From NCBI GenBank assembly GCA_028819005.1, contig JAPPMP010000028.1, positions 685 to 64,684 on the forward strand: DNA of 64,000 nucleotides, given 5' to 3'. Below the pieces are notes generated by a model that searched no databases, had not been told where the DNA came from, and worked only from the letters and a program-made list of their open reading frames with translations. The first letter of the stretch is position 1; every line of letters starts with the position of its first letter. Below, piece by piece: positions 5,115-20,761 of this stretch. The translations under genes were made by a program, and so were the position numbers. This DNA is from Acidimicrobiaceae bacterium. GTDB taxonomy: Bacteria > Actinomycetota > Acidimicrobiia > Acidimicrobiales > Aldehydirespiratoraceae.

Positions 5115-5152
5115 GAGGCCCACCCTCAGGGGTGGGCCTCTGTACTTTTCTT
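5115..5152 (+). terminator. Intrinsic terminator-like hairpin
   Basis: Perfect 11-bp stem GAGGCCCACCC-TCAG-GGGTGGGCCTC followed by TGTACTTTTCTT. Confidence 0.6.
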
Positions 5153-5851
5153 CCAAACCTTGGGACGTTCCACGTAGCCTTTCGCTAGAGCCACCCGATC
5201 CTGCATCTGGCAAGAAGGGAGTATTTCCCTCCGGAGCGGCCGAGCGCTTGTTGCTTCCCTCTGCAGTTCCCGGTTTACGGACGTGGCAGGGCTAATCACA
5301 TCGACGGTGTGACCAGCCTCCACGACGAGCTTGACCGCAATCTTGAGGTCACCATCGTTGGTCACCAGGATGGCGCGGTCGCAAGCCTTGGTATGGAAGT
5401 CGTTGACAAGATGTGTGGCCATAGCAACGTCCGTGAACTTTTCTTCTGGGACTTGAACACGGACCTTGAGCGGTCGCTCCGAACGAGCTTCGCTCCGATC
5501 AAGCATCCAGGCGGTCATTCGATTTGGGGAAGGGCGAAATCGGTCTTGCCACGAAAGGCGCGGAGCAACTGATCTCCACTTCAACGGCACCTGAAACTTC
5601 CCCTCGAAGACCTCTACGCCGGGAGTTGCCTGGATCGCTCTGATCAACACGCGATGCCGTCCGGGTGCTTTGGCGTCTTCAGATGCACTAGATGAGATCT
5701 GCGCAGTGAAGTACTTCACGGTTACGAGTTGGTCGCTGGCAGATATCAATTTTCTTCCGAACGCTGCCAGATCAAGCCACTTGTAATCTGTGTGCCTGAG
5801 AGCACCGTAATACAGGTTCAGACCATCCACGTAAACTGTTGTCCTAGTCAT
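5126..5851 (-). CDS. NYN-domain (LabA/DUF88, PIN-like) protein
   Basis: VYVDGLNLYYG, VKYFTA, EEKFTDVAMA, LVTNDGDL. Confidence 0.9.
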   Translation of the reverse strand: MTRTTVYVDGLNLYYGALRHTDYKWLDLAAFGRKLISASDQLVTVKYFTAQISSSASEDAKAPGRHRVLIRAIQATPGVEVFEGKFQVPLKWRSVAPRLSWQDRFRPSPNRMTAWMLDRSEARSERPLKVRVQVPEEKFTDVAMATHLVNDFHTKACDRAILVTNDGDLKIAVKLVVEAGHTVDVISPATSVNRELQREATSARPLRREILPSCQMQDRVALAKGYVERPKVWKKSTEAHP

Positions 5852-5906
5852 AGAGTCGAATCATGACATACGCTTTTCGCAAACCCCGCGAACGGGCGCG
5901 ATTGCG

Positions 5907-7448
5907 TCAGGTCGGTTCGGGGAAGCGGAATCGGGGACCTGCTTCGGCCCAGTCCATGTTGTCGCGGACGTATTCGCTGGCACCGTCGCGCACGGGTGTG
6001 AAGTCCCAGGAGTAGTGGCCGTCGATGGTCATCGCCGCGTGAAGCATCCGGCGGCTCCGCTGGGAGACCAGAACCCGCTCCCGTATGGCGTCGCTGTCCC
6101 ACCGCTGGGCGGTCTCTTTGGCGAAGCTTGCGGCTAGTTCGGCATGCGCGGGGTCAGCGGCGAGGTTGTTGCGTTCGAGGGGGTCGGCTTCGATGTCGTA
6201 CAGCAGTGCGGGGTCGCTGTCGCAGTGGATGTACTTGTGCCGGCCCCGGCGGATCATGAACATCGGTTGAGAGGTCATCTCGCCGGTGTATTCGGCGATG
6301 GTCTCGTCTATGGGGTCGTGCCCACCGGTTGCGCTCTCCCACAGGCTTCGCCCGGCCAGAGGGGTGACCGGTTCGATGCGGCCATCGCCGCTGCCGGCAT
6401 TGTCAGTTGAGGCGCCGTCCGCCGAGATGTCGAGCAGGGTGGGCAGCAGGTCCATGAGCGAGCAGACGTTGCCGACCGTTCGGTTGGCCACGTCGGGACC
6501 GGCGATGATCAGCGGGACCCGCAGTGACCGTTCAAAGAAGCTCATCTTGAACCACAGTCCCCGGTCGCCGAGCATGTCGCCATGGTCGCTTGTGGCGATC
6601 ACAATCGTGTTGTCGATCTGTCCGGTCTCTTCGAGGACTTTGACCAACTGCCCCAGCCAGGAGTCGAAGTAGCTGGTGTTGGCGTAGTAGCCGTGGCGGG
6701 CGTTGCGGCATTGCTCGTCGGTGTAGCCGATGGCGTCGGCCTGAATGCCGTGGCGGATCCTCAACGTGTGGGGGTCGGGTGAATCGAACCCGTTGTCTGG
6801 AAGGTCGATGTCGTCGTGGTCGTAGAGGTCCCACCATTCGGGTCGGGCCACATAGGGATCGTGGGGGTGGATCATGGCGGCCGCTAAGAACCACGGCCGT
6901 TCGTCGGCTTCACGGGCGAAGTCGTAGAGCTGGCGTGTCGTCGAGAAGCCGACCTCTTCGTCGTAGTCGATCTGGTAGGTGGCCAGCGCTTGACCCGCCT
7001 CCGACAGGCTGTCCATGTTGTGGTACCACTTGTCGATCCTGTCGTCGGCTTGGTCCCAGTTGGGCGTCCAGGCGAAATCGGCGGGGTAGATGTCGGTGTT
7101 GAGGCGGCGCGTGAATCCGTGGAGTTGGTCCGGGCCGATGAAGTGCATTTTCCCGGTCAGCACGGTGCGGTAGCCGGCGAGATTGAGATAGTGGGCGAGT
7201 GTCGGTACCCGTGCGGGGAACTCGGCGGCGTTGTCCCATGCGTCTATCGCGGTGGCCGGTTGGCCCGACAGCATTGAGAACCGTGAGGGCGCACAAAGCG
7301 GGAAGTTGCAGTACGCCGCGTCGAACCGCGTGCCCCGTTCGGCGAGGGCGTCCATCGCCGGTGTGCGAACCAATCGATGGCCGTAGGCACCGGTGAAATG
7401 CGGCGCCAACTGATCAGCCATCACCATCAGAATGTTGGGCTGTTTCAT
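5907..7448 (-). CDS. betC: Choline sulfatase
   Basis: PNILMVMADQL, sulfatase motif CAPSR, WDNAAEF, GKMHFIGPDQLHGF, TDIYPADF, WYHNM, HPHDPY. Confidence 0.9.
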   Translation of the reverse strand: MKQPNILMVMADQLAPHFTGAYGHRLVRTPAMDALAERGTRFDAAYCNFPLCAPSRFSMLSGQPATAIDAWDNAAEFPARVPTLAHYLNLAGYRTVLTGKMHFIGPDQLHGFTRRLNTDIYPADFAWTPNWDQADDRIDKWYHNMDSLSEAGQALATYQIDYDEEVGFSTTRQLYDFAREADERPWFLAAAMIHPHDPYVARPEWWDLYDHDDIDLPDNGFDSPDPHTLRIRHGIQADAIGYTDEQCRNARHGYYANTSYFDSWLGQLVKVLEETGQIDNTIVIATSDHGDMLGDRGLWFKMSFFERSLRVPLIIAGPDVANRTVGNVCSLMDLLPTLLDISADGASTDNAGSGDGRIEPVTPLAGRSLWESATGGHDPIDETIAEYTGEMTSQPMFMIRRGRHKYIHCDSDPALLYDIEADPLERNNLAADPAHAELAASFAKETAQRWDSDAIRERVLVSQRSRRMLHAAMTIDGHYSWDFTPVRDGASEYVRDNMDWAEAGPRFRFPEPT

Positions 7449-7584
7449 ACCCGCGACACTACTACTCAGGGCTCCCACACGGACGGCGCTTCGAGCCTGA
7501 TTATGTCAGCCACCGGCCCTAGACCTGTCACTTGTATTTTCGCAAATAGTTGGACTTGAAACATGGAGACCCGAATTACGGAAC

Positions 7585-8433
7585 TCAGATCTGCGAAATA
7601 TTGCCGAAAATGGCAGCGACCCAATTCCACGTGGTCTCGCGAAAGCGTTGGGCCTCCCTTTTCGTAGTGTTCCATTTCTCGGCAAGCTGCGCCCAGGCGA
7701 CCTCATCGGGCAGTTCCCTGGTACGAAGAACGTCCGCAATCGCGGCTGAGGAAAGTAGTTCGGTACCGACGATGGAGTCGAACGCACTCCGATCCAAACC
7801 CGGCGGTACGTTCAGTGCTGATAGGTCAAGCGCAGCTCTATGTCGCTCGTCCTCGGAGACCACCAGCGCTTCGTCGCCGCAATAGGCAAGCCAGACATGC
7901 GCAGGTTCACGCGTCATCGGTCGCCAACCATCCGGGTCCTGCGACTGAGCAGCCGAAGTCGCCGTGATCTCAGAATGTTCGAGTTGCTTCCAGTGCTCAA
8001 ATTCGCGGTCTGTCACGTCTCGGGCGCCACTCAAGAGCTCCCTTTCAAACTCCGCGGAATCGAAACCGAAGCCAGGCTCATGGAGGATCTCCACGTTGGA
8101 CGTATGACCGTAGCCCATACCCGTAGCTGTGAGGTTTGCGGAACCAACTAGCACGGAATCCTCAAACCGAAAGTACTTCGCATGCAGACGTTGGTTGAGC
8201 AGGAATCGCCCACCCTTGTCTACGACGTGGGTGCGACAATTGATGTCAGATGTGCCCACGATAATGTCTGCTAGCTGCCACCGGGTTACGCAAGTCAGAT
8301 GCACATGTTCTGAGAGGAGACCCAATACCCGAAGGAGAGTGTCTTCTTTGATGTACGGAGCTACAAGCACGGCGTGGTCTGCGTTGCGAGCAAGCCGTTC
8401 TAAGGCAGCCCATGGGCTTTCTTTCTCGGACAC
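7585..8433 (-). CDS. PLD-superfamily (single HKD-like motif) putative nuclease with uncharacterised C-terminal domain
   Basis: LVAPYI and LHAKYFRFEDSVLVGSANLT. Last gene of the 7-gene operon. Confidence 0.8.
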   Translation of the reverse strand: MSEKESPWAALERLARNADHAVLVAPYIKEDTLLRVLGLLSEHVHLTCVTRWQLADIIVGTSDINCRTHVVDKGGRFLLNQRLHAKYFRFEDSVLVGSANLTATGMGYGHTSNVEILHEPGFGFDSAEFERELLSGARDVTDREFEHWKQLEHSEITATSAAQSQDPDGWRPMTREPAHVWLAYCGDEALVVSEDERHRAALDLSALNVPPGLDRSAFDSIVGTELLSSAAIADVLRTRELPDEVAWAQLAEKWNTTKREAQRFRETTWNWVAAIFGNISQI

Positions 8434-8437
8434 GGTC

Positions 8438-10333
8438 TCAAACGTTCATGTCTTTGGCTATCCCGGGAAGGAAGTGGCGCGCGTGTTTTCCCCATTGCAC
8501 GGCGATATGCTCAAGCTCTGCCCTGTCGCGATTCTCTGCGGTCTCGTCCTGTAGCCGCGCCCAAGCAAGCAGGAGGGTGCGTAGAGCAACGGCCGCTCGC
8601 CGAGCCAAAGGATCACCGAGGTCCTCACTCTGATCCTCTAGCACCTCAAGAAAGTCGAACAATTCGTGATTGATGTTCAACGAGACAACCAATACTCCAT
8701 TGACGTTGTCCACGCCGAACATCTGGTGTCCGTATAGCTTTCGTTGGCTGAAAGCGTACCAGTCATCGCGAGCGACGATTGATGAAGCATACTGGTCTGC
8801 AGTTTCGGGATCTAGGTCGCCTTGCTCAAAATATTCTGTAAGAGCAGCCTTCTTTGCGCCAGGGTCTGTTCTATCGCGCTCAATGTCGGTTTCAGTAGGT
8901 GTTGCTCCGTCCCGAAGTTCTTCCTGCCGGGCCTCCTTTGCGATTCTTGCTGCTTCTTGACTCGGAGACACCGGGGCATTGTCTTGGTTTTGGTTTTGCC
9001 GCTGACGTCGTTGCCGAAAAAGTTGCTCTATTTCGTTGAGCATGTTCCGCGTCGTTCGGCGGATATGCGCGACCATATCGTATACGGGATACACAGGATC
9101 ATCTTCATCGATCCCCAGATCATCGATGGCATCCGAGTCAGTGCGTTTTGGGCTATTGATGAGGGTTTTGGCAGCGTTCGAAATGCGCGTTGCCATCTGC
9201 TTGTTGTGGTCTACCCCGAAGGCTTCATCGAGACCCGGCTCGAAGAGTACTTCGCAACCCCACCAACGGTTTTCTTGATCACCGCCGCCCATTGGAAGAA
9301 AACTCCTATCAAGCAGGAGTTCCCGGTTTGCGCGAACGATTGATACACCCATATTGCGGCCCGCAGAGCGCCCATGGGGATATCTACCAGGTAGACCCCC
9401 TCGTTCTGTACCATGTTCATCCCGGTTGTTGATTATCACTTCTGGTCGAACCATAGAAAACCGAACTTCAGCGACTTCTTCACGTGTGCGGAGTTCACCG
9501 TCAGACCCACGGATCTCTACTTCCATAGCGAACTGTCGTGGTGTGTCGTACTCTTTGAACATTGGGTCTTCGTGCCACGGGGTTGGGGTTGAACTGTTGC
9601 TCATGAGGTACAGAGGATCGTTCGGGCGAACCTCATTGTCTGCCTCCAGATTATCGTCTCGAAATCGTGCCATCCTGATTGACAGCGACCGGTCATTGAT
9701 GAAGTGCCTATATGTACGTCCAACCTCATCTTCCACTTGTCGGAACAGAGTTTCTGCTGCGCTAAGAACACGATCTCCGAAGTCACTCCATACGACTAGC
9801 GTGCCTTTCTGCTTGTCGAGTCCTTGTTCGCTAATTCGGTCGACCCACTTTTTGGGGACAGGAATAACGTCGGGTATTTGTTGGGTTTTTACGTGCCCGT
9901 CTAGGATTCCACCGACGTTTAGGATCGAATGCGCTGCTCTCTCGATCGACTCTTGCCAGGTCCACACCTCCGCCAAGAGACACTGCGATGCTGACGCGGT
10001 TGGGAGTCCCATTCCGTACTTACCAATTGGGTGCGCTCGAGTTCCAGATCGTCGGCCACCGATGCGAAGTGCATCAACAAGAGTTGTGGGAGTCATTCCG
10101 CTGCCATTATCTACAACAGCTATCTCCGAGACGCGCCACCGCGAACGCTTCTTCACTAAACGTTTTTGTTCTTCGATTAACAACTCTACGCGAGTTGCCT
10201 TCGCATCAATGGAGTTGTCGATAAGTTCAGCAATGGCCTTACCCGTATTGTCGTACTGTGCGTCGCGCAGAGCACGTACCGCTGCTGTCGGATCCACGAG
10301 TGCAAGATCGAGCTCTAGTTGATCTTCTGCCAT
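8438..10333 (-). CDS. MORC/GHKL-family ATPase
   Basis: N-box IAELIDNSIDA, G1 VDNGSGM, G2 GKYGMGL, GTLV, MORC-like GVSIVRANREL and FGVDHNKQ, followed by a coiled coil. Confidence 0.85.
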   Translation of the reverse strand: MAEDQLELDLALVDPTAAVRALRDAQYDNTGKAIAELIDNSIDAKATRVELLIEEQKRLVKKRSRWRVSEIAVVDNGSGMTPTTLVDALRIGGRRSGTRAHPIGKYGMGLPTASASQCLLAEVWTWQESIERAAHSILNVGGILDGHVKTQQIPDVIPVPKKWVDRISEQGLDKQKGTLVVWSDFGDRVLSAAETLFRQVEDEVGRTYRHFINDRSLSIRMARFRDDNLEADNEVRPNDPLYLMSNSSTPTPWHEDPMFKEYDTPRQFAMEVEIRGSDGELRTREEVAEVRFSMVRPEVIINNRDEHGTERGGLPGRYPHGRSAGRNMGVSIVRANRELLLDRSFLPMGGGDQENRWWGCEVLFEPGLDEAFGVDHNKQMATRISNAAKTLINSPKRTDSDAIDDLGIDEDDPVYPVYDMVAHIRRTTRNMLNEIEQLFRQRRQRQNQNQDNAPVSPSQEAARIAKEARQEELRDGATPTETDIERDRTDPGAKKAALTEYFEQGDLDPETADQYASSIVARDDWYAFSQRKLYGHQMFGVDNVNGVLVVSLNINHELFDFLEVLEDQSEDLGDPLARRAAVALRTLLLAWARLQDETAENRDRAELEHIAVQWGKHARHFLPGIAKDMNV

Positions 10334-11565
10334 AATTCCTCCCAGTTAGTAAATGCTTCGGCCACTGAGCCAAAGCCCTTAAGTCGTGTGTCGATGACTG
10401 TGAGAACCTCGCAGTGCCTGTTTCCACCGGATCGCGGTCCACGCATAGCCCTACCTACCATCTGCGAGTAGAGAACAAGGGAAGTAGTGGGCCGCGCGAC
10501 GATGACGCACCTCGTCTTTGGAGCATCGAAGCCAGCGGTCAGCACCCCGAAGTTAAATAGCGCCATTGGTTCGGCATCGCTAGCCCGGAAGACCGAAATT
10601 GCTGTATCCCTGTCCTTGCTCGGAGTACCTGCAACGATTGCAGCAGAACGGAATCCCTTGCGCCGGACCTCGCGACTGGCTTCAAGTGCATTTGGCACAG
10701 AAGGGCAGAAAACCATGACACGGTCGTGTCGAGCAAGCGCGTCCAACGTCAATTCAACTACTTGAGAGAACCACGTTGGATCGTTTCCGATCATCCGAAG
10801 ATCATTCTTACGGTAGTCGCCTGTGCCATCGGGCTCTGCAATTCTTTCATCCAGATCCACGTTCACTTGTACAAACTCAGGTGCGGCAAGGTAGCCGTTT
10901 GTGATCAGATACGCGACGGAATTGTCATGACCGCGTGGATCAATCGTGACCTTCTGCTCTCCGAACATTTCGGCTAAGTCGTAATCGTCTCCGTCCAAAC
11001 GCCAAGTCCGACCAGGTGTCGCTGTGAGTCCAATCATCGGGGGATTGTCCACGCTAAGTTGTTCGGCCAGGAATCGGTAAGTTGGGGCGATGGCTTGGTG
11101 GGCCTCATCGAACACAACTCCTGCCGTCTTGTGACCGAGTTTTGTCAGGAACCCGTGTTCACCGGCGCTAAGCCGCGAGTTCGCGGCTGACCACAACTTT
11201 TGAAGGCCAGCCACAACAAAGCCCTCGTCTAGTATTCCGAGTTCCAAACTTGCGTCGCCCCAATAGCGATACATGGTCGCAACACGATTTCCTAGAGAAC
11301 ACCAAGCATCGGTGAGGCTCTGGGCTGCTTGCTCGCAGAGTTCCTCGGACGCGGCGAGCCACAAGAACACCTTCCCCTCAGCGCGACGGTCGTTTAGGAA
11401 CGATGCTGCAGCATGGCTAGCTATCCGAGTCTTGCCTGCACCTGTCGGGAGGTGGACCACGACTCGGCGATCTTGCAACTTGTTGCCAGACACAGCCGTC
11501 AACAGATCATGCAACACCTGACGCTGAAACGGATGGAGAGGGTAATGGGGAGAAATGGTCTGCAT
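10315..11565 (-). CDS. SF2 DEAH-box (ResIII-like) helicase/translocase
   Basis: LPTGAGKT, FDEAH, LTATPGR, LTAGFDAP, QMVGRAMRG. Confidence 0.9.
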   Translation of the reverse strand: MQTISPHYPLHPFQRQVLHDLLTAVSGNKLQDRRVVVHLPTGAGKTRIASHAAASFLNDRRAEGKVFLWLAASEELCEQAAQSLTDAWCSLGNRVATMYRYWGDASLELGILDEGFVVAGLQKLWSAANSRLSAGEHGFLTKLGHKTAGVVFDEAHQAIAPTYRFLAEQLSVDNPPMIGLTATPGRTWRLDGDDYDLAEMFGEQKVTIDPRGHDNSVAYLITNGYLAAPEFVQVNVDLDERIAEPDGTGDYRKNDLRMIGNDPTWFSQVVELTLDALARHDRVMVFCPSVPNALEASREVRRKGFRSAAIVAGTPSKDRDTAISVFRASDAEPMALFNFGVLTAGFDAPKTRCVIVARPTTSLVLYSQMVGRAMRGPRSGGNRHCEVLTVIDTRLKGFGSVAEAFTNWEELWQKIN

Positions 11566-11584
11566 GCAGTAATCAAGCAGTCAC

Positions 11585-12433
11585 TCACAGGGCGCAGACG
11601 GTACAAGGGAGGGTGTCGTCGTCTTCGTCTAGAGCGTCGGCTAGGGCTTCGACGAGAGGGACGTTGGTTCTGGATTTGTTTGAGCGGGCCAAGGAAGCTT
11701 CATGCCTTTCAAGGATTTGATCGCGGCGAGATCGTAGTTGCAACAGCGTCTCGCCGCCAGACCACGTGTACTGGCGGCCGCGCATGGCCTGGTCTCCGAA
11801 ATCGGCGTCGCCGTCGACGCCAGCGTCCTGAAGCACCTTCTGTTCGATGGCTACCGCCCGGTCGAAAAGCTCGGGATGGCGCTCCGAGAGACCGATCCAT
11901 TCTGCTTTTCGTTGGTAGAAACAGAAGTAACACCCGGACCGGGTGCGCCACTCGTAATACTCGGGCAACCCAATCCCGGCGTCTTGCAGGATGCGCATCA
12001 CGCCGTCGTGGTCTACCCCGTCTTCGATGAACGGGAACAGCGTCTTGATGTTGGGCTTGGTGGATACGTAGCCCTTGCGGTTCGACTCGTCGGCGCGGAT
12101 CGCGACGTAAGACACCGCGGGTGCGTCGCCGATCCACTCCTCGATGGGCTTGATCTTCATGTTCTTGGTGCACCAGCGCATTTGTGGTGACGGAAGAGCT
12201 CCCCGGAACACCTCGAACCAATGGTCGAATCCGCGTGAGGCGTTCAGGCGAGCTATGGGTTTCCCGAGAATCGCTTCGAGACGGGTGAGGTACTCGTAGG
12301 TCTCGGGAAGCTCCGCGCCTGTGTCGCAGAAGAAGTACTCCATCTCGGGAACCTCGCCGCGAAGATAGACGGCGAGAGCACTGGAGTCCTTCCCCCCGGA
12401 GATGCCACAGATATGACGGACCACTTCACCCAT
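11585..12433 (-). CDS. PAPS-reductase-family protein, SspD/DndC-like
   Basis: PP-loop SGGKDS, DTGAELPET, RWCT, IRADES, RSGCYFC; gene order next to an ATPase and DUF4007. Confidence 0.85.
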   Translation of the reverse strand: MGEVVRHICGISGGKDSSALAVYLRGEVPEMEYFFCDTGAELPETYEYLTRLEAILGKPIARLNASRGFDHWFEVFRGALPSPQMRWCTKNMKIKPIEEWIGDAPAVSYVAIRADESNRKGYVSTKPNIKTLFPFIEDGVDHDGVMRILQDAGIGLPEYYEWRTRSGCYFCFYQRKAEWIGLSERHPELFDRAVAIEQKVLQDAGVDGDADFGDQAMRGRQYTWSGGETLLQLRSRRDQILERHEASLARSNKSRTNVPLVEALADALDEDDDTLPCTVCAL

Positions 12434-15400
12434 AACGAAATCTCCTCAGACCCTCGTCGAACCGCGCCCTATCGTCCCCGAGTTCATCGGCGTCTGCCTG
12501 GTTGGGCAGCAGTCGTTCACCGAGCAGGGCAAGTAGCGCCTGATGGGCTATTTGCGGAGATCCGATTGTGTCGGTTAGCTCAGTGAGGGCGCTGTCGAGA
12601 ACGCGCTCGGTCTGGGACCGATGGGCATTGTCCACAGAGACCAGTCGGATGTCCTCGCTTCCATCGGAGCGTGTAACCGTCACCCGCAATGCATCGAACG
12701 GACCTCCCCCATCAATTCGGCATTGAGCATGGAGTGCGACTAGCCGCCGGAACGCGGCCACCTGTTCGGAGAGATCGCTCCGAAAACGCTTGAGGTCGTC
12801 GTCGCCCCATTCAGCGGGTGCTTTCTTGGCGACAACGGTGGCGATGGCTCTCATCCAGTCGGTGTCGTTGTCGACGGTGTCGTTGGCAAGTGCCAGCACA
12901 AATGCACGTACCGCAGGATCAAGCACCTCGTTCTCAAGGGCGGCGGCTTGTCCGCACACGGCGAGACGGGTGTTCTCCGCGCACTCCTCGAGTAGTAGTC
13001 CCACAAGGTCTGTTAGGAGCAGTTCGTAGCATCCATCGAGTTCATCAAGAACACTTCCAACCGTGTTCGCATAGGACTGAGCTGCGCTGTAACTCTTGGC
13101 GTCTGAGCGCACCGGTCTGAACCCCAAAGCCTCGGGAAGAGCAGCGAAGAGCAGTTCGTCTGGTTCGACCGCCGCCACGAGCGCGTCTCGTGCGTTTCGA
13201 GTGGCTTCGGACAGGTGAGCGGTTCGGAGTGTGTAATTGTCCAGGCGTCGGACACCCGATACAAGGTGGCCCACGATGGCGAGCACATTGGCTACACGGC
13301 GTCTGGAGCGCGCAGGCCGGATATTCAGCCGCTTGGCGAGCGCGTCTACTACAACGCGCCTAGCTCCGGTTGTATTGGCGAAGTGCTTCACATCGAAATG
13401 CCCTGGATTCCGCACCATCCGTTCCGAGATCTCGGGTGTGAGCACCGGCTTGAACGTGCCATGTTCGTAGAGGGCGATGCGGTCGGCGGAAGCGAGAAGT
13501 CCAGCGGTTACGAACACCGGTACGACAGCGGCTTTCATCCCCACCGGCGGCAACAGCAGCGCAGCGTACACATCGCGCAGATTTACACGACGGGACTTCG
13601 CTCGGTTGAATTCGGTTTGCATGACATCCCAGGCAACACCGAGTGACTCGTTAGTGGGTTCTCCGAATGCTTCGGTGGCATTGCCCTGTCTGCTGATGTG
13701 GATGTTCGTGCGCTCCATGAAGGCCCGGTACATCGCCATCTCGGGTCCGTGTCCCGTGAACCCCAAGTCCGGTTCGTCGGAATGCTCGATCATCCCCTCA
13801 AGCAGAAGACGACGTGCTTTGGATCCCTGGGTAGTGAGATCAGTGCGGTTCAACATCTCGTTGCCAACCGCCGGCGTTGAGCGGTACACCTCGTCGCACG
13901 CTTGTGACAGCGCGGAAGTACCCCGTCCAGGGTGAAGCTCCAGGCCTTCCGCAGCGTCGAGAAGGACCCATTTGCAGGTGTCGGTGCCGAAGGCGTCTGC
14001 CGCGGCTCGGTCGAACGTCACTCGTGACTGGGCGAGCCTTTCGCTCAACTCGCGCCGGGCAACCCAGTCCTCGGCGACCCCGGGATCTTCAAGAGCGAAG
14101 AGAACGGCGGCGACTTCGCAGGCAGACTCCTTTAGTTCGGTCACGTCGGTCGGAATAGCGGCAATGACAGGCTTTGCAGCAACCGCAGATGGACCCAAAC
14201 TCGGAACCGAGGTTGTGTCACCAACCATGAGTAGCGCTTCGCCGTCGAATTGGGAGAAGGCGTCAAGGGGCTCCACCTCGCCACCGTCGAAGTAGCGAAC
14301 CGAGAACATCCGGAGCATGTCGTGCTCGGAGCTATGGCGGGCAGCGACCATAGGCCGAGGTTGATGCACGGACGTCAATATTTCGACCAATGGTTGGTGT
14401 TGGACCTGTTCCAGCGCAGCGTCCACGAGGCCCCGAATATCCACGTCGGTTCCGTGCCACACGCGGTACTCGTCGGCGAACTCCCGATAGGTCACTATCC
14501 CGGTTTCTTCAAGTTCGACGAGTATCTCATCGGCGCTGCTGTCAACGAGCCGAAGCATCTGTTTCGATGCTCGGACCGTTCCAGAGGTCGAAACCAGGTT
14601 GAGAAGTGCCACCGCCTTGGCGAGCCGTTGCTGTGGGAGTGAAAGCCCATATGAATCGCGCAGTCTGGAAGCGATCTCAATCCAGCGGCTCGACTGCCCC
14701 GAACCCGAGGCGTTGAGCGCGCCGCTAGCGACAAAGTAGTCATACACGCGATCGAGACCCAGCAAAGGCAAGGGCCGGCGCTGAGCGATCGCAGCCTCGC
14801 CTAAGAACGACGCCGCGCTTTGGGGGTCCGACCCTGCGAGAAACGAGAAAAGCGTGCGCTCTTGTTGCCCGTAGCGGCTGCAGAGCTCAGGCAGCACTAA
14901 AGACGCCAAGGAGTGGAGCGGATAACAGGCTGCTACTACTTCAGGATCCGCGAGTTCCGCGATGCCGAGTGAACGCAGCTTCTTCGCCTCGGATTTGGCC
15001 CATCGGAAAATCCGAGAGCGCAATTCGTCGTCGTGAACATCGAAAACAGTCCCGATAAGCGCTCGAGTCTGGGTTGGCGACTCCACGAAGGCGATGTCCT
15101 CGAAACGGCCCTGAACCTTGGCCCACTCGCGGCGCTGAGCCCCGGCCGCGCCAGCCAAGCAGTCGTCAAATGAGAGGTGCTGAAGCGTGACCACAAAGAT
15201 CGGCAAGCCAGAGCCTTGCCCCGCTTCAGCAAGCTGCTGGAGCAGGTAGGGATCACCGTCTGCCCCGCCATCACGAATCGCTTCTAGGTTCTTGCCGAAC
15301 TCATCTATGACCAGCAGCAGAGGTGATTCCTCGGCTAGGCAGCGAGCGATCTCGACTAGTGCCGCAGGCGAGGGCCCGGTTCGACGCGGATCGTCGGCAG

Positions 15401-15911
15401 CCATGTCGCTGAGCGCGTCTCGCAGAGTCTTGGCTGCCCAGAATCTGCTTTTGGCAGGGATCTTGTTGTATCTGCGAAGGACGGCTGCTTCGAGCGCTCG
15501 AAGAACTGTATGGCTCAGCGGCTCTCGCTGCGCGGTCACCAGAGCTCGGTGAAAGCCTGATTCGTGAGTGCCGTGACGCTGATGCGCCTGCCGCGCTAGA
15601 ACTCCCACTTCCGGGGACACTTCGTCGATCAGAGCTAAAGCGGTTTCCCGAGTATCGCCCTTTGCCCCGATGGTGGCGTCGAGCAACAACGCCAGAGATG
15701 ACTTCCCCGAACCGTACGGACCGGTCAAGGACCATGCTCCGCCGGCCGGGCCCTTTGCGGCGGTCGTCACGATACGTTCGATGACATCTAGAGTCCGGGC
15801 CGTGACAACGTAACCGTCAAGGGGCTCAAGTTGAGCCGCGTCACGCTCAAGGTTCGCCGAGCGCGCATAACGACCTGCAACTGTGATCGAATCCGACAGC
15901 AATGCCATCAC
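12426..15911 (-). CDS. Large P-loop ATPase, SspC-like
   Basis: RYARSANLERD, Walker A GPYGSGKS, Walker B LVIDEFGKNLE, EWAKVQGRF, YPLH, ERTLFSFL; 1161 aa. Confidence 0.8.
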   Translation of the reverse strand: MMALLSDSITVAGRYARSANLERDAAQLEPLDGYVVTARTLDVIERIVTTAAKGPAGGAWSLTGPYGSGKSSLALLLDATIGAKGDTRETALALIDEVSPEVGVLARQAHQRHGTHESGFHRALVTAQREPLSHTVLRALEAAVLRRYNKIPAKSRFWAAKTLRDALSDMAADDPRRTGPSPAALVEIARCLAEESPLLLVIDEFGKNLEAIRDGGADGDPYLLQQLAEAGQGSGLPIFVVTLQHLSFDDCLAGAAGAQRREWAKVQGRFEDIAFVESPTQTRALIGTVFDVHDDELRSRIFRWAKSEAKKLRSLGIAELADPEVVAACYPLHSLASLVLPELCSRYGQQERTLFSFLAGSDPQSAASFLGEAAIAQRRPLPLLGLDRVYDYFVASGALNASGSGQSSRWIEIASRLRDSYGLSLPQQRLAKAVALLNLVSTSGTVRASKQMLRLVDSSADEILVELEETGIVTYREFADEYRVWHGTDVDIRGLVDAALEQVQHQPLVEILTSVHQPRPMVAARHSSEHDMLRMFSVRYFDGGEVEPLDAFSQFDGEALLMVGDTTSVPSLGPSAVAAKPVIAAIPTDVTELKESACEVAAVLFALEDPGVAEDWVARRELSERLAQSRVTFDRAAADAFGTDTCKWVLLDAAEGLELHPGRGTSALSQACDEVYRSTPAVGNEMLNRTDLTTQGSKARRLLLEGMIEHSDEPDLGFTGHGPEMAMYRAFMERTNIHISRQGNATEAFGEPTNESLGVAWDVMQTEFNRAKSRRVNLRDVYAALLLPPVGMKAAVVPVFVTAGLLASADRIALYEHGTFKPVLTPEISERMVRNPGHFDVKHFANTTGARRVVVDALAKRLNIRPARSRRRVANVLAIVGHLVSGVRRLDNYTLRTAHLSEATRNARDALVAAVEPDELLFAALPEALGFRPVRSDAKSYSAAQSYANTVGSVLDELDGCYELLLTDLVGLLLEECAENTRLAVCGQAAALENEVLDPAVRAFVLALANDTVDNDTDWMRAIATVVAKKAPAEWGDDDLKRFRSDLSEQVAAFRRLVALHAQCRIDGGGPFDALRVTVTRSDGSEDIRLVSVDNAHRSQTERVLDSALTELTDTIGSPQIAHQALLALLGERLLPNQADADELGDDRARFDEGLRRFRYG

Positions 15912-16975
15912 AACGCTCCAACCTGCAAAGCGGCGGGTTCGTGGAGTCGACGAATAACGGAGTCCTGATCCCGCCCGTACCCGAGATCTTCAATGAGATC
16001 GTCGTCCACGGGCTCATCACCGTCACAACCAGCGACAACCCCGATCTGTGGCACGCCAAAATAGCTATCGAGCAGCCTCGGGGCGACAATTGCCGGTTCT
16101 TCTGACCATGCGAGCTGCACTACGCCGGTCGGCGTCGTCAGCGCGAGTTCCTCCGCGGTTTCGACACAGGGTTCGAGCAAAGCGAGCAACTCGGCCTCCG
16201 AAAGCTTGAAGGCCTGGCCTGGAGAGCCTGCATCGTTGGTGAGGCGACTAAGGGTCGCAGTGCTGCCGCCGCTGTTTGTTCGAGCGATCCAGTCGAGCAT
16301 GGCGTAGGCAGCGATCTCCGGTGGCAGTGTCGGCTTTGTCCCGAGCGTGAAACGGCGTTGATCTGCGTCGACAGAGTTGTTGATCAGATTGAGCTCGCGC
16401 AGCGGGCAGTTCAACACATCGTCAATTGCAGTACCTCGGGACCGCTCCTGCGGGGCATAGGTGCGAAGCAGGGCGCTCACATCTTTTTTGAGTGACGAGG
16501 GATTTGGAGTCGACCATTGCGAAACGGCTCCAATTTGCGTCGAGATCGCGGTCTCAAGATCATCATCTGTGAACTCGACCGCGGCGAACTCGTTGAAGGC
16601 CAGCCACCAAACCGGTAGCCGAGACTGCGGAGCAAGAAGCAGCCAGTGCAACAGCCACAAGGTCCCCGGGTCCTCCATGTAGGGATCCCAGCCAGATTCG
16701 CCGAAGATTGCGTGACCGATCCGGGTGGGCACGCAGCCCTTGACCCGCCGGTTCGCCTTCGGGTCCTCTACGATCAGCTTCGCTGCCAAGCCCCAAAACC
16801 GGATTGCCCGGACCATATTCTTGCCGACGCCCAGTTCCACGGGAGCGTTTTCCTGAGTGAACACGTGTGGATTGCCTGCTGCGGCCTTGTACGCCTTACG
16901 AAACCATCCGTAGCGCGGGTGGAAGGTCTCGTGCCGCGCGAACGTAGGCAGAGCAGCGTCTACCAATCGCATCAA
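15908..16975 (-). CDS. DUF4007-family protein, SspB-like
   Basis: FARHETFHPRYGWFRK, LGVGKNMVRAIRFW, DPYMEDPGTLWLLHW. Confidence 0.9.
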   Translation of the reverse strand: MMRLVDAALPTFARHETFHPRYGWFRKAYKAAAGNPHVFTQENAPVELGVGKNMVRAIRFWGLAAKLIVEDPKANRRVKGCVPTRIGHAIFGESGWDPYMEDPGTLWLLHWLLLAPQSRLPVWWLAFNEFAAVEFTDDDLETAISTQIGAVSQWSTPNPSSLKKDVSALLRTYAPQERSRGTAIDDVLNCPLRELNLINNSVDADQRRFTLGTKPTLPPEIAAYAMLDWIARTNSGGSTATLSRLTNDAGSPGQAFKLSEAELLALLEPCVETAEELALTTPTGVVQLAWSEEPAIVAPRLLDSYFGVPQIGVVAGCDGDEPVDDDLIEDLGYGRDQDSVIRRLHEPAALQVGAL

Positions 16976-18156
16976 AAGGTCTCCCTGGTCATGGATCTAA
17001 CGTATTGAACGGCTGTGACAGCCGATGCGGCCGCAGCCTCGATGTCACTCCCGGTCGTGAACCTGCCGAGGCTGAAGCGGACAGTCTCGAAAGCAGCATC
17101 CCTGCTGAGGCCCATAGCGAGCAGCACTGCGGACGGATCAATTGAGCCGGAACTGCAAGCGCTGCCCGTCGAAACTGCCACGGGATCCATTTGCGTCACC
17201 ACGGCCTCTGCGTCCGTGCCCTCGAATCGGATGCTCGCAGTATTGGGAAGGCGGCGGATGGTATCGCCGTTTTCGTGAACGTCGGGGATTTTCGCCTTTA
17301 TGTCGGCAACTAGCCGATCACGGAGCTTCACGACTCGCGATGCCTCGGCCGCTCGCTCATCGGCTGCTGTATCTGCAGCCGCGCCAAGCCCGACGATCCC
17401 AGCAACATTCAACGAACCTGACCGCAGTCCCCGCTCTTGTCCCCCTCCGTGGATGATCGGTTGAATCAGGCGCAAGCTCTGGCGTGTCCCGATCAGCGCT
17501 CCGACGCCACCAGGCCCGCAGATCTTGTGACTGCTGATCGACACGAGATCCGCTCCCACGCGCTGGAGATCGAAAGGAAGCCGCCCCACCATTTGAGTCG
17601 CGTCGCAATGAAACAAAGCACCAGCGGCATGAACTCGCTCAGCTATCTCGTCTACCGGGTTCAGCACGCCGGTTTCGCTGTTCGCTGCCATCACGGACAC
17701 CAGCAGCACATCGTCGTCGATCAACTCCTCCATCTCCTCAAGATCGACAAAACCTCCACTGCTCACTGGTATCACATCAAGCTTCGCCAAACCCTGTTCG
17801 CTGAGTGATCGTGAAACCTTGTGCACCGATGCGTGCTCCACGGCGGAGACAAGGATTCGCCGGCGATCACCGTGGGCGGCTTCGACCGCGCCTCGAAGCG
17901 CAAGATTGTTGGCCTCGGTGGCTCCCGCAGTGAACACCACATCGGCCGCGCGCCCGCCGACAAGGGCAGCCACTTGTTCACGGGCCCGGTCGACCACGGC
18001 AGTCTGGTAGCGCCCGAACCTATGGCTAGATGATGCGTTGCCCACTCCTTCAAGCAGAACCGGCGTCATCGCGTCAGCGACCCGTGGGTCAAGAGGCGCC
18101 GATCCGTTGTAGTCGAGATACACCTCTTTCACGACCACTTCATCCTGTGTGTTCAT
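16972..18156 (-). CDS. Cysteine desulfurase, SspA/DndA/IscS-like
   Basis: YLDYN, FTAGATEANN, EHASV, HCDATQ, PLP lysine in SSHK, GGGQERGLRSG, catalytic STGSACSS. Confidence 0.95.
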   Translation of the reverse strand: MNTQDEVVVKEVYLDYNGSAPLDPRVADAMTPVLLEGVGNASSSHRFGRYQTAVVDRAREQVAALVGGRAADVVFTAGATEANNLALRGAVEAAHGDRRRILVSAVEHASVHKVSRSLSEQGLAKLDVIPVSSGGFVDLEEMEELIDDDVLLVSVMAANSETGVLNPVDEIAERVHAAGALFHCDATQMVGRLPFDLQRVGADLVSISSHKICGPGGVGALIGTRQSLRLIQPIIHGGGQERGLRSGSLNVAGIVGLGAAADTAADERAAEASRVVKLRDRLVADIKAKIPDVHENGDTIRRLPNTASIRFEGTDAEAVVTQMDPVAVSTGSACSSGSIDPSAVLLAMGLSRDAAFETVRFSLGRFTTGSDIEAAAASAVTAVQYVRSMTRETF

Positions 18157-18419
18157 CTATCGGGCCTCGAGGCACTGTTGTTGTATTGGTAGACCTTAGA
18201 ACGCACCGCGCGACGATACGCGGACGGTTCGATCCTCAGTTCCACCGCTTGGTCGAGGTACTCTCTAGCACAACTGATAGCAATTGTCAATATATTTCAT
18301 TATTCTCAATATGTCGCTAATGGTTGCCAAGCGATGACAGGAGCACTAGGTTTCGAGGCAATCACTCGGGGACGGTGAATGCGACCCCCTCCACCACATA
18401 CGAATCTAGGAGGATGGTC

Positions 18420-18794
18420 ATGCCGAAGGGTGAGGAGGAGCGCCTTGAGCTCCTAACCAGATTGACCGAGGCAATCGGAGTCGACGCAGCCAGGAAGATT
18501 ATGGAGTCACTACCCCCAATGCAATGGGACCAACTCGCCACCAAAGATGATCTGAAGGCCCTTGAGGAGCGCTTGGTCAACGAGTTCGGCGGCAAGTTCG
18601 CCAAAATCAACGGTGAAATGAACGGCGAGTTCGCCAAGGTCTACGGCGAATTTGCGGACGTAAGGGGCGAGATCAAGGACCTTCGTGGATCGATCTCCCT
18701 CGAAATCGCCAGGCAGACGCGTACTTTGGTGTTCACGATGGTGGGCTTCGCCATGACCGTCTGGATTTCGATACTCGCGATCGGCGTTTCCTGA
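18420..18794 (+). CDS. Small coiled-coil protein with C-terminal membrane anchor (DUF1640/CCDC90-like)
   Basis: AGGAGG RBS, LATKDDLKALE motif, heptad repeats, hydrophobic C-terminus. Confidence 0.65.
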   Translation: MPKGEEERLELLTRLTEAIGVDAARKIMESLPPMQWDQLATKDDLKALEERLVNEFGGKFAKINGEMNGEFAKVYGEFADVRGEIKDLRGSISLEIARQTRTLVFTMVGFAMTVWISILAIGVS

Positions 18795-18947
18795 CGCCGG
18801 GCTGCCCAGCCGAAGACGGGAGCGTTGGCTCGGAGACTCCGGTTAGAACGGCTTCCAGGATGAAGGGAACTCAGCGTCTGGGCAGACCGCTGGGGAGGCC
18901 CGACGACATCGGAGAAAGTGCCGCGTGATTTCGCTCAACTCTCAGGG

Positions 18948-18966
18948 TGGTCAGACCATAAGACCA
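18948..18966. promoter_or_regulatory. Putative GntR/FadR operator, copy 1
   Basis: TGGTCAGACCA-TAA-GACCA upstream of the VOC gene. Confidence 0.65.
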
Positions 18967-19004
18967 CGGCTATTGTCGCTACGCAACCAGACCAGAGGGG
19001 AACC

Positions 19005-19532
19005 ATGACCTATCCGAACACGCTCGTATTCGTTGACTTTCCGTCAGACGACGTTGACGCAGCGCGCGCCTTCTACGCCGAAGTATTCAACTGGGAGATC
19101 GAGGAACGCATCCCAGGCCTCTTCCACCGCATCGTGCCCGGGCAGAACTTCAAGGTTGACGACGGGTCGCAGGGCCCGACCGGCAACCTCCATATGGGCC
19201 TTTCCAACGCCGCCAACATGAGGCCCCACCCCGACGCCGAGCCGACCGCGCCCACCAGCATGAACCCCGGGGGCCGAGCCATCCGCGCCTGGATATTGGT
19301 GAGCGACGACGATTCGTTCGATCGCATCCTGGCCGCGGCCGAGCGTCTAGGGGGCGCGATCTTGTGGCGCGACCACTTCTGGACCGAGTTCGGCGGCGCC
19401 AATGCCTCCTTCCTCGATCCGTGGGGCAACCAACTCATGCTCTGGCAGCACCTCCCCGACGCCGAAACCGACGACGACACCCATCAGGTGGTCGGCGAGT
19501 TCAGCGTCCCCGAAGGCTGGACCGTCGAGTAA
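19005..19532 (+). CDS. VOC/glyoxalase-family protein
   Basis: VDFPSDDVDAARAFYAEVFNW and FLDPWGNQLMLW. Confidence 0.85.
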   Translation: MTYPNTLVFVDFPSDDVDAARAFYAEVFNWEIEERIPGLFHRIVPGQNFKVDDGSQGPTGNLHMGLSNAANMRPHPDAEPTAPTSMNPGGRAIRAWILVSDDDSFDRILAAAERLGGAILWRDHFWTEFGGANASFLDPWGNQLMLWQHLPDAETDDDTHQVVGEFSVPEGWTVE

Positions 19533-19681: not shown

Positions 19682-20761
19682 CTAGGGGCGAACAGCCACG
19701 AAGCACTGCTGGAAGCCGATGGGCTCGATCAGGCGAATGTGTGCGAATCCGGCGTCTCGCAGCCACTCTGAGAACTGTTGATGGGTGAACGTCGAGCCCT
19801 TCTTGGTGCTGGCCATCATGGTTGCGCCCATGATGACGGCGTGCGGGTTGAATTTGCGTTCAACATCGGTGAAGTAGTCCGCTAGCAGCAGCCGGCCCTG
19901 CGGTTTCAGCGCGCGAAAGGCCCTCTCGATGAGATGACGAGCACCTTCGGCGCCCTCAGTTCGACAGACGTGACCAAGCACCGCGATGTCGTAGGCCTCG
20001 TCCTCTATATCGATGGTGTGAAAATCACCGGGCCGCAAATCGCAGCGGTCGGCGACCCCGTGCTCGCTGGTCTTGGCCGCGGCCACGTCGATGACGCCGG
20101 GCAGGTCGTTGATCACCGCGGTGCCCCGTGTGCAAGCCGTCAGAATGGCGATCGACCAGGGCGCCCCGCCCGCTCCGAGGTCCAGCACATGGGGTTGCTC
20201 CAGAGCCGAGTAGCGGATTTTCAGGTCTGCTCGGCCGGCGCAGCGAAACATCGTGGTGAAAGTGCCCTCCACCAGCGGGACATAGAACGCCGCCGGGTCG
20301 TCTTCGATCGGAGCGGCGGGTGTGCCGTTGCGGATCGTGTCGGCCAGACGGGTCCAGTTCTGGTGCGGTCCCGGCGCCACCGGCACCAGATCGGCCATTG
20401 TCGCGGGGCCGTCGCTGACGAGATAGCGCTTGGCCGTGTCGTTGAGCTCGTAGACGTCTGCGAACTGGTCGAGCAGCCCCAGAGCGACCACACCGTCGAG
20501 CAGTGTCGCCAGCTGAACGGCAGGCACATCCAGTTTTTCGGCCAGAGCCTCGGCGGTTGTCGGGCCGGTCTCTTTGAGCGTGTCGAAAACGTCGAGTTCC
20601 AGCGCAGCGACGAGAATGTAGTAGCGGCCGAGTCCTTCGATCGCCGCCCACACCGGCGCCGCGGGCGGGGGTTTGCGATCGGTCCACGGACGACCCTTGG
20701 CCGCCATCGTGTGGGTCTTCTTCAACTCGGGATACGGGGCGTCCCGTGGCTCGCTGGTCAT
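19682..20761 (-). CDS. Class I SAM-dependent O-methyltransferase-family protein with dimerisation domain
   Basis: AALELDVF, VLDLGAGGA, DLPGV, GDFH. Confidence 0.85.
   Translation of the reverse strand: MTSEPRDAPYPELKKTHTMAAKGRPWTDRKPPPAAPVWAAIEGLGRYYILVAALELDVFDTLKETGPTTAEALAEKLDVPAVQLATLLDGVVALGLLDQFADVYELNDTAKRYLVSDGPATMADLVPVAPGPHQNWTRLADTIRNGTPAAPIEDDPAAFYVPLVEGTFTTMFRCAGRADLKIRYSALEQPHVLDLGAGGAPWSIAILTACTRGTAVINDLPGVIDVAAAKTSEHGVADRCDLRPGDFHTIDIEDEAYDIAVLGHVCRTEGAEGARHLIERAFRALKPQGRLLLADYFTDVERKFNPHAVIMGATMMASTKKGSTFTHQQFSEWLRDAGFAHIRLIEPIGFQQCFVAVRP

Follow-up and report, generated by a model that had tools for sequence, protein, structure and literature searches.

What do three genes for a helicase, a MORC-like ATPase and a phospholipase D (PLD)-family protein do directly downstream of a complete set of SspABCD genes, the module for single-strand phosphorothioate (PT) modification? 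The question arises at positions 7585-18156 of a 64,000-nucleotide stretch of DNA from a sponge-associated bacterium of the Acidimicrobiaceae (GenBank assembly GCA_028819005.1, contig JAPPMP010000028.1, positions 685 to 64,684; this whole stretch is called the window here), where seven co-oriented open reading frames (ORFs) lie on the minus strand. As judged from gene content and comparative genomics, the seven genes probably constitute one PT-linked defence system of two modules, an SspABCD writer and an effector made of the three downstream genes (the trio), and this is probably a new kind of anti-phage system. In transcription order the genes are:

16972-18156, minus strand: sspA, a cysteine desulfurase of 394 amino acids (aa); PADLOC SspA, E 5e-130; Pfam Aminotran_5, E 3e-75.
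15908-16975, minus strand: sspB, a DUF4007 protein of 355 aa; PADLOC SspB, E 1e-102; Pfam DUF4007, E 4e-85.
12426-15911, minus strand: sspC, a BrxC-related large P-loop ATPase of 1161 aa; PADLOC SspC, E 0; BrxC, E 2e-89.
11585-12433, minus strand: sspD, a PP-loop enzyme of the PAPS-reductase family, 282 aa; PADLOC SspD, E 7e-109; Pfam PAPS_reduct.
10315-11565, minus strand: first gene of the trio, a superfamily 2 (SF2) DEAH helicase of 416 aa; Pfam ResIII, DEAD and Helicase_C.
8438-10333, minus strand: a MORC-like GHKL ATPase of 631 aa; Pfam HATPase_c_3, E 3e-20.
7585-8433, minus strand: a PLD-family protein of 282 aa with a single HKD motif; HAK...GSAN, weak DrmC and ZacB matches, PLDc_2 in the ESM Atlas.

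The ORF listing agrees with an earlier note on this DNA as to the seven genes, their order, their coordinates and the lengths of the junctions, which in transcription order are overlaps of 4, 4 and 8 nucleotides (nt), a gap of 19 nt, an overlap of 19 nt and a gap of 4 nt. The note had also claimed a single operon; the tight spacing speaks for this, and the single transcript is a reading of that spacing. Its statement that all catalytic motifs are intact held when the motifs of SspA, SspC, SspD, the helicase, the GHKL ATPase and the PLD protein were checked. A PADLOC run, proposed in the same note, matched the first four proteins to SspABCD at the E-values listed above and left the trio without an assigned system, with partial, generic matches and none of full length. 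The island has no gene for SspE, PglZ or a DNA methyltransferase, as had been said; the methyltransferase encoded at 19682-20761 is of the small-molecule O-methyltransferase type and is kept in relatives that have no island.

The assignment of the writer genes is based on several features of each protein. SspA has the pyridoxal-phosphate lysine motif SSHK and the catalytic GSACS; SspB matches Pfam DUF4007 with 286 bits against a cut-off of 27, and sspB is the sole DUF4007 match in the whole genome. The PADLOC match of SspC, which has the Walker A motif GPYGSGKS, spans positions 2-1103 of a 1104-position profile, and SspD contains SGGKDS plus two CxxC motifs (CYFC and CTVC). All four proteins have the hallmarks of SspABCD, and PT production by them is predicted from this homology.

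The proteins of the trio are recognizable as families rather than as parts of a named system. The helicase contains the motifs GAGKT, DEAH, TAT and QMVGRAMR; its NCBIfam match is RadD-like (E 1e-27, under the cut-off), and its PADLOC matches, to PbeA (E 1.7e-12; 184 aa, residues 24-207) and mREase_IV (E 1e-10), are partial and generic. The ATPase matches HATPase_c_3 with 73 bits against a cut-off of 25, and the N box, DxGxG and G2 loop of the GHKL fold are present (ELIDNSID, DNGSG, and GKYGMG). Among proteins of solved structure MORC2 is its best relative, at E 2.6e-4 when the single sequence is searched and at 5e-7 when the family profile is, the sequence match being limited to the ATP-binding part (residues about 32-130); the PADLOC match to MzaB (E 7e-13) covers the N-terminus only. 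At least 1149 homologs are present in the protein collection. Thus the earlier designation as a MORC/GHKL ATPase stands as to GHKL and the HATPase_c_3 type, and "MORC" is corrected to MORC-like, MORC2 being the nearest solved relative.

The last protein of the trio has the motif HAKYFRFED...GSAN, in which E, and then D, follows four residues after the K. In 35 homologs H84, K86, G97-S98-A99-N100, and E115 are invariant; so are W170, P172, R175, Y184, and W271, which belong to the C-terminal half, a domain of about 150 aa that has no detectable relative. The protein has no Pfam match and no Pfam PLD model fires; PADLOC gives weak matches to DrmC (E 2.5e-7, in the HKD region) and ZacB (E 3e-6), and in the ESM Atlas its 10 best family-bearing matches share the family or clan of the top one, PLDc_2 (score 0.95). 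The family profile finds 644 representative clusters (50% identity) at E ≤ 1e-30. The protein is a predicted single-HKD nuclease whose active site would be dimeric.

Evidence that the trio is a module of its own comes from genomes of the same genus. Of 17 same-genus genomes one has a homolog of the GHKL ATPase, and of 23 further relatives none does. The sulfatase gene on one side of the island (window 5907-7478) is present in 16 of the 17 and the O-methyltransferase gene on the other side in 14 of them, and the interval between the two holds 0.9 to 21 kb of cargo that varies across the genus (L086-L095). In the closest of the relatives compared by flank identity (G014), window segments 5170-7476 and 18938-19531 are only 172 bp apart in a blastn comparison, from which the limits of the insert follow. 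The GC content is 54.4% in the trio, 60.3% in sspABCD and 62-63% in the flanks. No direct or inverted repeats of 10 nt or more flank the island ends, and no integrase gene is seen within the island. Given its sparse distribution and low GC content, the trio is accessory and mobile in character. Two features are delimited by these comparisons and those that follow:

7477-18937, no strand: the entire insert, measured against G014, the closest relative, in which the site is empty; blastn.
7502-11582, no strand: the swappable effector cassette (helicase, MORC-like ATPase and PLD protein); contig joins in sibling samples, homology break, GC content.

Two genomes of the genus, G010 and G022, carry SspABCD in the same hotspot at 85-95% aa identity to the window, and SspD of the window is 94-95% identical to SspD of same-genus genomes with other effectors. 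DNA homology to G010 (87%) and G022 (83%) begins at window position 11585/11584, which is the sspD stop codon. Downstream of the orthologous SspABCD, G022 encodes PbeA (E 6e-169) and PbeC (E 1e-50). In G010 (L088 2106-7967) the place of the trio is taken by genes for a 778-aa protein, a GIY-YIG protein, a DndB-like protein and an SNF2 helicase; the 778-aa protein, whose gene overlaps sspD by 4 nt, has no Pfam or PADLOC match, and this gene set may be another undescribed Ssp-linked effector set. A third genome, G008, retains a decayed Ssp remnant in the hotspot, consisting of SspA, SspB and the first 128 aa of SspC.

Replacement is also seen between strains. On a contig from run X2, a sibling sponge-metagenome sample, the SspABCD part is nearly identical to the window, and position 7501 is joined to 11583 with 6015 other letters between them, which replaces exactly 7502-11582; on a contig from run X4, 7452 is joined to 11583 with 10192 other letters between (depth gaps in runs X2-X4 were counted only where a contig joins across). 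Because the same SspABCD is followed by other modules in relatives and sibling strains, the trio occupies a swappable effector slot, the one taken up in other PT systems by SspE, SspFGH or PbeA/PbeC, and comparative genomics shows a modular role for it as the predicted effector.

Further genes were seen at these two related loci. In the G022 locus (L092 6453-19595), PbeA and PbeC, which have been described with Dnd, occur with Ssp, and a divergently oriented gene upstream of sspA encodes a 582-aa HATPase_c_3 protein. The G010 hotspot also holds a PDC-S01 (DUF4143 ATPase) gene.

A second locus in G022 encodes SspA-B-C-D-helicase-GHKL-PLD in the same order as the window, with Ssp proteins 65-88% and trio proteins 34-41% identical to those of the window. 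In a FastTree phylogeny of 97 GHKL proteins, which is unrooted, approximate and has long branches, this second trio falls in a half where almost all members are Ssp-linked; the window trio is nested among cassettes in which a PAPS-reductase-like gene accompanies the trio (see below), where it forms a set of three with L004 and L005 at 97% local support. It follows from the second locus and the tree that within one genus SspABCD has been joined, each time in the same arrangement, to trios of two deeply divergent lineages.

How general the pairing is was assessed by a scan of one genome per species, which gave 213 confirmed GHKL relatives; the counts that follow are for the best 80 loci from other genomes, with gene presence determined by tblastn, which also backs the crude ORF calls at these loci. 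Many of the 80 loci are kin (29 actinomycete loci are approximately one clade), and the counts are not independent events. A helicase homolog is present in 79 of the 80 loci and the PLD gene in 77, two of the three misses being contig ends; all three genes are kept in 77 of the 80 loci with a MORC homolog. The survey suggested in the earlier note, for a recurrent helicase-MORC-PLD trio beside Ssp genes, thus finds it in many unrelated genomes and arrangements. Two of the grounds named in that note for giving up its claim, a match of the three genes to an already named system and a complete absence of co-occurrence with Ssp in other genomes, accordingly do not apply. Full SspABCD adjoins the trio in 30 loci, namely a chloroflexotal locus (L032) that has the co-oriented seven-gene order of the window, and the 29 actinomycete loci, whose SspABCD is divergent and 25 of which also carry a second, divergent PAPS-reductase-like gene. 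The claim that the trio is coupled to the Ssp module therefore holds as recurrent co-occurrence and is modified in one respect: the most constant partner is a PAPS-reductase-family gene (78 of 80 loci), not the whole of Ssp.

Plasmids provide a separate sample. Thirteen plasmids encode a full-length or near-full-length GHKL homolog, and in 11 of the 12 loci examined Ssp or PT genes lie beside the trio in co-oriented, convergent or interleaved arrangement, in Alphaproteobacteria, Bacteroidota, Cyanobacteria and Spirochaetota. On plasmids of Pannonibacter, Pleomorphomonas and Hymenobacter the trio follows SspB-C-D on the same strand, and those of Pannonibacter and Pleomorphomonas also have a cysteine desulfurase nearby; a Treponema plasmid has DUF4007, an SspC-like protein, a class-V aminotransferase and then the trio; in Roseobacter, Mesorhizobium and Aminobacter plasmids SspBCD is convergent with the trio. 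In Trichormus, Geminocystis and Planktothrix the trio has a PAPS reductase gene upstream of it, accompanied in Trichormus and Geminocystis by an annotated DndB, and a cysteine desulfurase gene follows the PLD gene directly (Trichormus) or lies about 1.5 kb further on (Geminocystis), none being annotated in the Planktothrix stretch. The Cyanobacterium HL-69 plasmid has a cysteine desulfurase alone in reach, with DUF4007 17 kb off. Since DUF4007 occurs on only 96 of 72,556 plasmids (0.13%), the co-occurrence of trio and Ssp on plasmids is far above background, with the proviso that plasmids from related species are non-independent samples; about 1 in 8 DUF4007-bearing plasmids has a GHKL homolog (12 of the 13 GHKL plasmids, among the 96 with DUF4007).

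In 38 of the 80 loci the trio is accompanied only by a divergent PAPS-reductase-like gene, directly upstream of the helicase gene, with no SspA, B or C nearby (within L005-L053; e.g., L020:7913-12714 and L017:7853-12687). The hosts are mostly metagenome-assembled genomes of Dehalococcoidia/Chloroflexota, with some Latescibacterota, Alphaproteobacteria, Acidobacteria and others. The divergent enzyme has SLGAGVQS where SspD has SGGKDS, keeps five cysteines shared with SspD and has a C-terminal ECEGxCG; its profile has a weak solved-structure match to "PptA" (E 0.031). Five complete genomes with this cassette were checked: DUF4007 is absent in four of them and DndC in all five. Ten further loci (L008-L015, L025 and L048) have PDC-M33A, M33B and a fusion of M33C (DUF6339) with a PAPS-reductase-like domain before the trio, as in L012:4364-8770 (PADLOC E 2e-72 for M33A and 4e-28 for M33B). 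In 9 of these 10, as in L032 and the window, the PAPS-reductase-family gene is immediately upstream of the helicase gene, and in L032 and the window it is SspD that occupies the position held elsewhere by the divergent enzyme. The two loci without such a gene are L004, which also has no PLD gene, and L079, which is cut upstream. In the cassettes that have no SspB or SspC, either the trio helps the PAPS-reductase-like enzyme to write a mark or self is told from non-self independently of a mark.

The possibility that PDC-M33A and M33B are diverged SspC and SspB was unsupported (hhalign probability ≤1.8%); between M33A and the GHKL family the profiles are weakly similar (hhalign probability 37%). 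No GHKL homolog was found in phage records at E ≤ 1e-10, and of two metagenome scans the first gave none and the second four distant loci.

The function proposed for the trio draws on its component families and is patterned on ATP-dependent restriction enzymes and on restriction loci that contain MORC. On ATP, GHKL ATPases form dimers that clamp DNA or partner proteins; DEAH/ResIII helicases provide translocation in restriction enzymes that depend on ATP; and single-HKD PLD proteins pair into one nuclease site. In the window, SspA would mobilise sulfur from cysteine, SspB and SspC would find and prepare sites, and SspD would act as the PP-loop enzyme that inserts the sulfur. The GHKL ATPase would dimerise and clamp DNA, the DEAH helicase would translocate, and the PLD protein, which with its single HKD motif must pair to form one active site, would nick or cut DNA that does not have the host's PT pattern; PT-marked self DNA would stop the trio or fail to license it. 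We infer which way the trio depends on PT, that its proteins form a complex and that it has nuclease activity, and give a rough probability of 0.6 to this reading, in which the trio attacks DNA lacking the host's PT pattern, as reported for SspFGH.

Several observations weigh against attack on unmarked DNA by an Ssp-dependent trio. The chief one is the large class of cassettes that have no SspB or SspC: in 38 of the 80 loci the trio stands with only the divergent PAPS-reductase-like gene, so the canonical Ssp writer is not strictly needed, and a rule of cutting whatever lacks Ssp-type PT would be self-toxic in these hosts unless the divergent enzyme alone writes a mark. In L004 part of the trio stands with no PAPS-reductase gene in reach, and an Agrobacterium plasmid, pAtCFBP7129b (L108), is the sole one of the 12 with no PT gene in reach. 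Replacement of the cassette in close strains is also compatible with a plain insertion hotspot for unrelated defence genes. Scans for promoter-like and terminator-like sites of the operon did no better than chance. The likeness of the helicase to PbeA is generic, and the PLD profile is unlike the PbeA N-terminus.

The Agrobacterium locus was also inspected for its other genes: at 5705-17835 of L108 the helicase and GHKL genes are followed by genes for a protein of 359 aa that is not recognised as PLD, for two hypothetical proteins and for a very large protein with an FtsK/SpoIIIE domain, the last of which resembles SspFGH/DndFGH-type translocases by description.

An alternative that is possible, though unlikely, is that the host's own PT stimulates or licenses the trio against incoming DNA, in the manner of SspE. 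SspE works in this way and shares SspABCD with other effectors, according to the available part of PMC8092258. The trio adjoins SspABCD in the 29 actinomycete loci, and in one of these (L076) the ORF after sspD matches SspE (E 3e-92), an ORF cluster present in 11 loci. Activation by PT would also remove the problem of self-toxicity in trio cassettes that have no full writer, and the helicase has weak matches to type IV modification-dependent enzymes (the mREase_IV match above); these matches, however, concern the generic helicase core only, and no PT-reading domain is recognised in the trio, the PLD protein's C-terminal domain having no detectable relative.

It is more doubtful still that the trio and any PAPS-reductase-family enzyme together make a self-sufficient, sulfur-based write-and-restrict machine, which would amount either to a PT pathway separate from both Ssp and Dnd or to a new DNA modification. 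Proteins of the PLD superfamily act through a covalent phospho-histidine intermediate. In such a machine DNA targeting would pass to the helicase and the GHKL clamp, and the PLD protein would open the backbone; the window would be a hybrid in which SspD replaces a divergent enzyme with a CysH-type loop. If this were true, a bacterial MORC relative would be the direct partner of an epigenetic backbone mark.

It is improbable that the two modules are independent neighbours, with SspABCD an orphan or epigenetic writer and the trio a self-contained defence that landed in the hotspot. The varied cargo of the hotspot across the genus, the deviating GC content of the cassette and its replacement between near-identical strains fit this explanation, as do the 48 of 80 loci in which the trio has no SspB or SspC (the 38 with only the PAPS-reductase-like gene and the 10 with PDC-M33). 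Chance landing does not readily explain a swap boundary that coincides with the sspD stop, with the helicase gene starting 19 nt later, or two deeply divergent trios fused to SspABCD in the same order in one genus. It also fits poorly with the pairing in 11 of 12 plasmid loci when DUF4007 is on 0.13% of plasmids, with cyanobacterial plasmids that have the trio between PAPS reductase/DndB and cysteine desulfurase genes, and with the PAPS-reductase-family gene in 78 of 80 loci.

Similarly improbable is a part for the trio in a modification machine, in place of restriction or beside it, in which the trio and a PAPS-reductase-family enzyme scan, open and nick DNA to install sulfur or another group. 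This would account for the constancy of that partner gene and its place immediately upstream of the helicase gene (38 loci, 9 of 10 with PDC-M33, L032 and the window), for the fact that SspD of the window and of L032 takes exactly the place that the divergent enzyme has in other loci, and for the conserved five cysteines in hosts that mostly have no SspB, SspC or DndC. To our knowledge no case of PT writing with a GHKL ATPase has been described. It also speaks against the explanation that SspABCD of the window is complete, that its orthologs work with other downstream modules, and that an HKD/PLD nuclease with an SF2 helicase is a recurrent restriction architecture (the available parts of PMC10853773 and PMC2292703).

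Some sequences near the island or elsewhere in the genome were also noted. An ORF at 18324-18794 on the plus strand (156 aa, no family match), between sspA and a glyoxalase-like gene, is placed outside the Ssp module because its DNA is 74-84% conserved in several relatives, one of which has no Ssp genes. Beside the sulfatase gene and outside the island, 5126-5851 on the minus strand encodes an NYN-domain protein (Pfam E 9e-9) that is conserved at 92-98% identity in two relatives with no island, G014 and G007. In the sulfatase genes of relatives, apparent in-frame TGA codons were rejected as normal stop codons read through by the alignment. Two N-terminal GHKL fragments elsewhere in the genome, G000:C43:6723-7166 (L002) and G000:C52:110-400 (L003), are 36-43% identical to residues about 12-161 of the window ATPase; one has an in-frame TGA and the other is at a contig start, and they may be remnants of other GHKL defence genes.

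The interest of the trio lies first in the number of writers for which a partner is missing. About 15% of 2,678 sspBCD modules have SspE or SspFGH adjoining, so most Ssp systems are without a known restriction partner (available part of PMC8092258). The trio is a widespread candidate for that role: the PLD protein alone forms 644 clusters, and Ssp modules lie beside the trio in many phyla (Actinomycetota, Chloroflexota, Alphaproteobacteria, Bacteroidota, Cyanobacteria, and Spirochaetota). Through it, a link between a prokaryotic ATPase of MORC type and a defined epigenetic mark can be put to the test, and such a link between MORC and PT is relevant to the way in which eukaryotic MORCs acquired their role downstream of chromatin marks. 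The genus itself holds a natural series of one writer with at least three effector modules and replacement at the strain level, a system for studying the mixing of PT writers and readers. Finally, the cassette of PAPS-reductase-like gene and trio, which occurs in genomes that have neither Ssp nor Dnd, hints at a DNA-sulfur chemistry as yet unexplored.

Among known systems, SspABCD-SspFGH of Vibrio anguillarum FF-93 likewise combines an Ssp writer with a three-gene restriction module (PMC8092258). As described in the available part of that paper, SspFGH damages non-PT DNA and is toxic without the writer, and SspF, SspG and SspH have no annotated homology save a Walker A motif and an FtsK/SpoIIIE-like C-terminus of SspH; by this description SspFGH is set apart from a trio of DEAH helicase, GHKL ATPase and PLD protein. 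SspE uses the same writer and is also encoded directly beside sspD, but it is a single protein with N-terminal DUF262 and C-terminal DUF1524 that is stimulated by PT, and the trio is not of that make-up. No SspE match was found among the seven proteins; the only one genome-wide is a weak DUF262-type match elsewhere (E 3.5e-5 over 111 positions), and its model also fires in 7 of 14 control genomes. A HATPase family regulator of Streptomyces called "SspH" is a coincidence of name, the protein being 142 aa long, anti-sigma-like and unrelated (available part of PMC9137472).

PbeABCD, which occurs with Dnd, has a similar mix of components, a PT-associated protein that joins HKD and SF2 helicase (PbeA) and a CxC ABC ATPase (PbeC), as far as described in the available text of PMC10853773. 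In the window, by contrast, nuclease and helicase are separate proteins and the ATPase is of GHKL, not ABC, type, and none of the seven proteins matches PbeC. The idea that the trio is a split PbeA was rejected, as its PLD profile has an hhalign probability of 0.2% against true PbeA and its helicase reaches E 1.7e-12 compared with 6e-169 for a real PbeA. DISARM similarly couples a helicase and a PLD nuclease to a modification module; the window differs from it in that DrmC is matched only weakly (2.5e-7), DrmA and DrmB (DUF1998) are not matched, and the island encodes a GHKL ATPase instead, with no DNA methylase. PDC-M33, which precedes the trio in the 10 related loci described above, is represented by no gene in the window.

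MORC and paraMORC ATPases occur in predicted restriction loci together with SFII helicases and with nucleases of the HKD or another type (Iyer, Abhiman and Aravind, 2008; available text of PMC2292703), and these restriction-modification operons share with the trio a HATPase_c_3-type GHKL protein, an SFII helicase and a nuclease. They carry DNA methylases, whereas the trio of the window stands with Ssp/PAPS-reductase genes; the terms PAPS reductase and PT have no occurrence in the available text of that paper. MORC and GHKL are absent from the main texts of papers on Dnd (PMC10853773, available part), BREX (PMC12839542) and type 4 BREX (PMC12914056), and a paper on V. cholerae WASA uses GHKL only for a Shedu variant (PMC12137116). 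The open, non-subscription literature searched gave no description of PT with MORC, GHKL, HATPase or PAPS reductase. As far as that literature extends, the pairing of SspABCD with a helicase-MORC-PLD trio is probably a new variant of PT-based defence.

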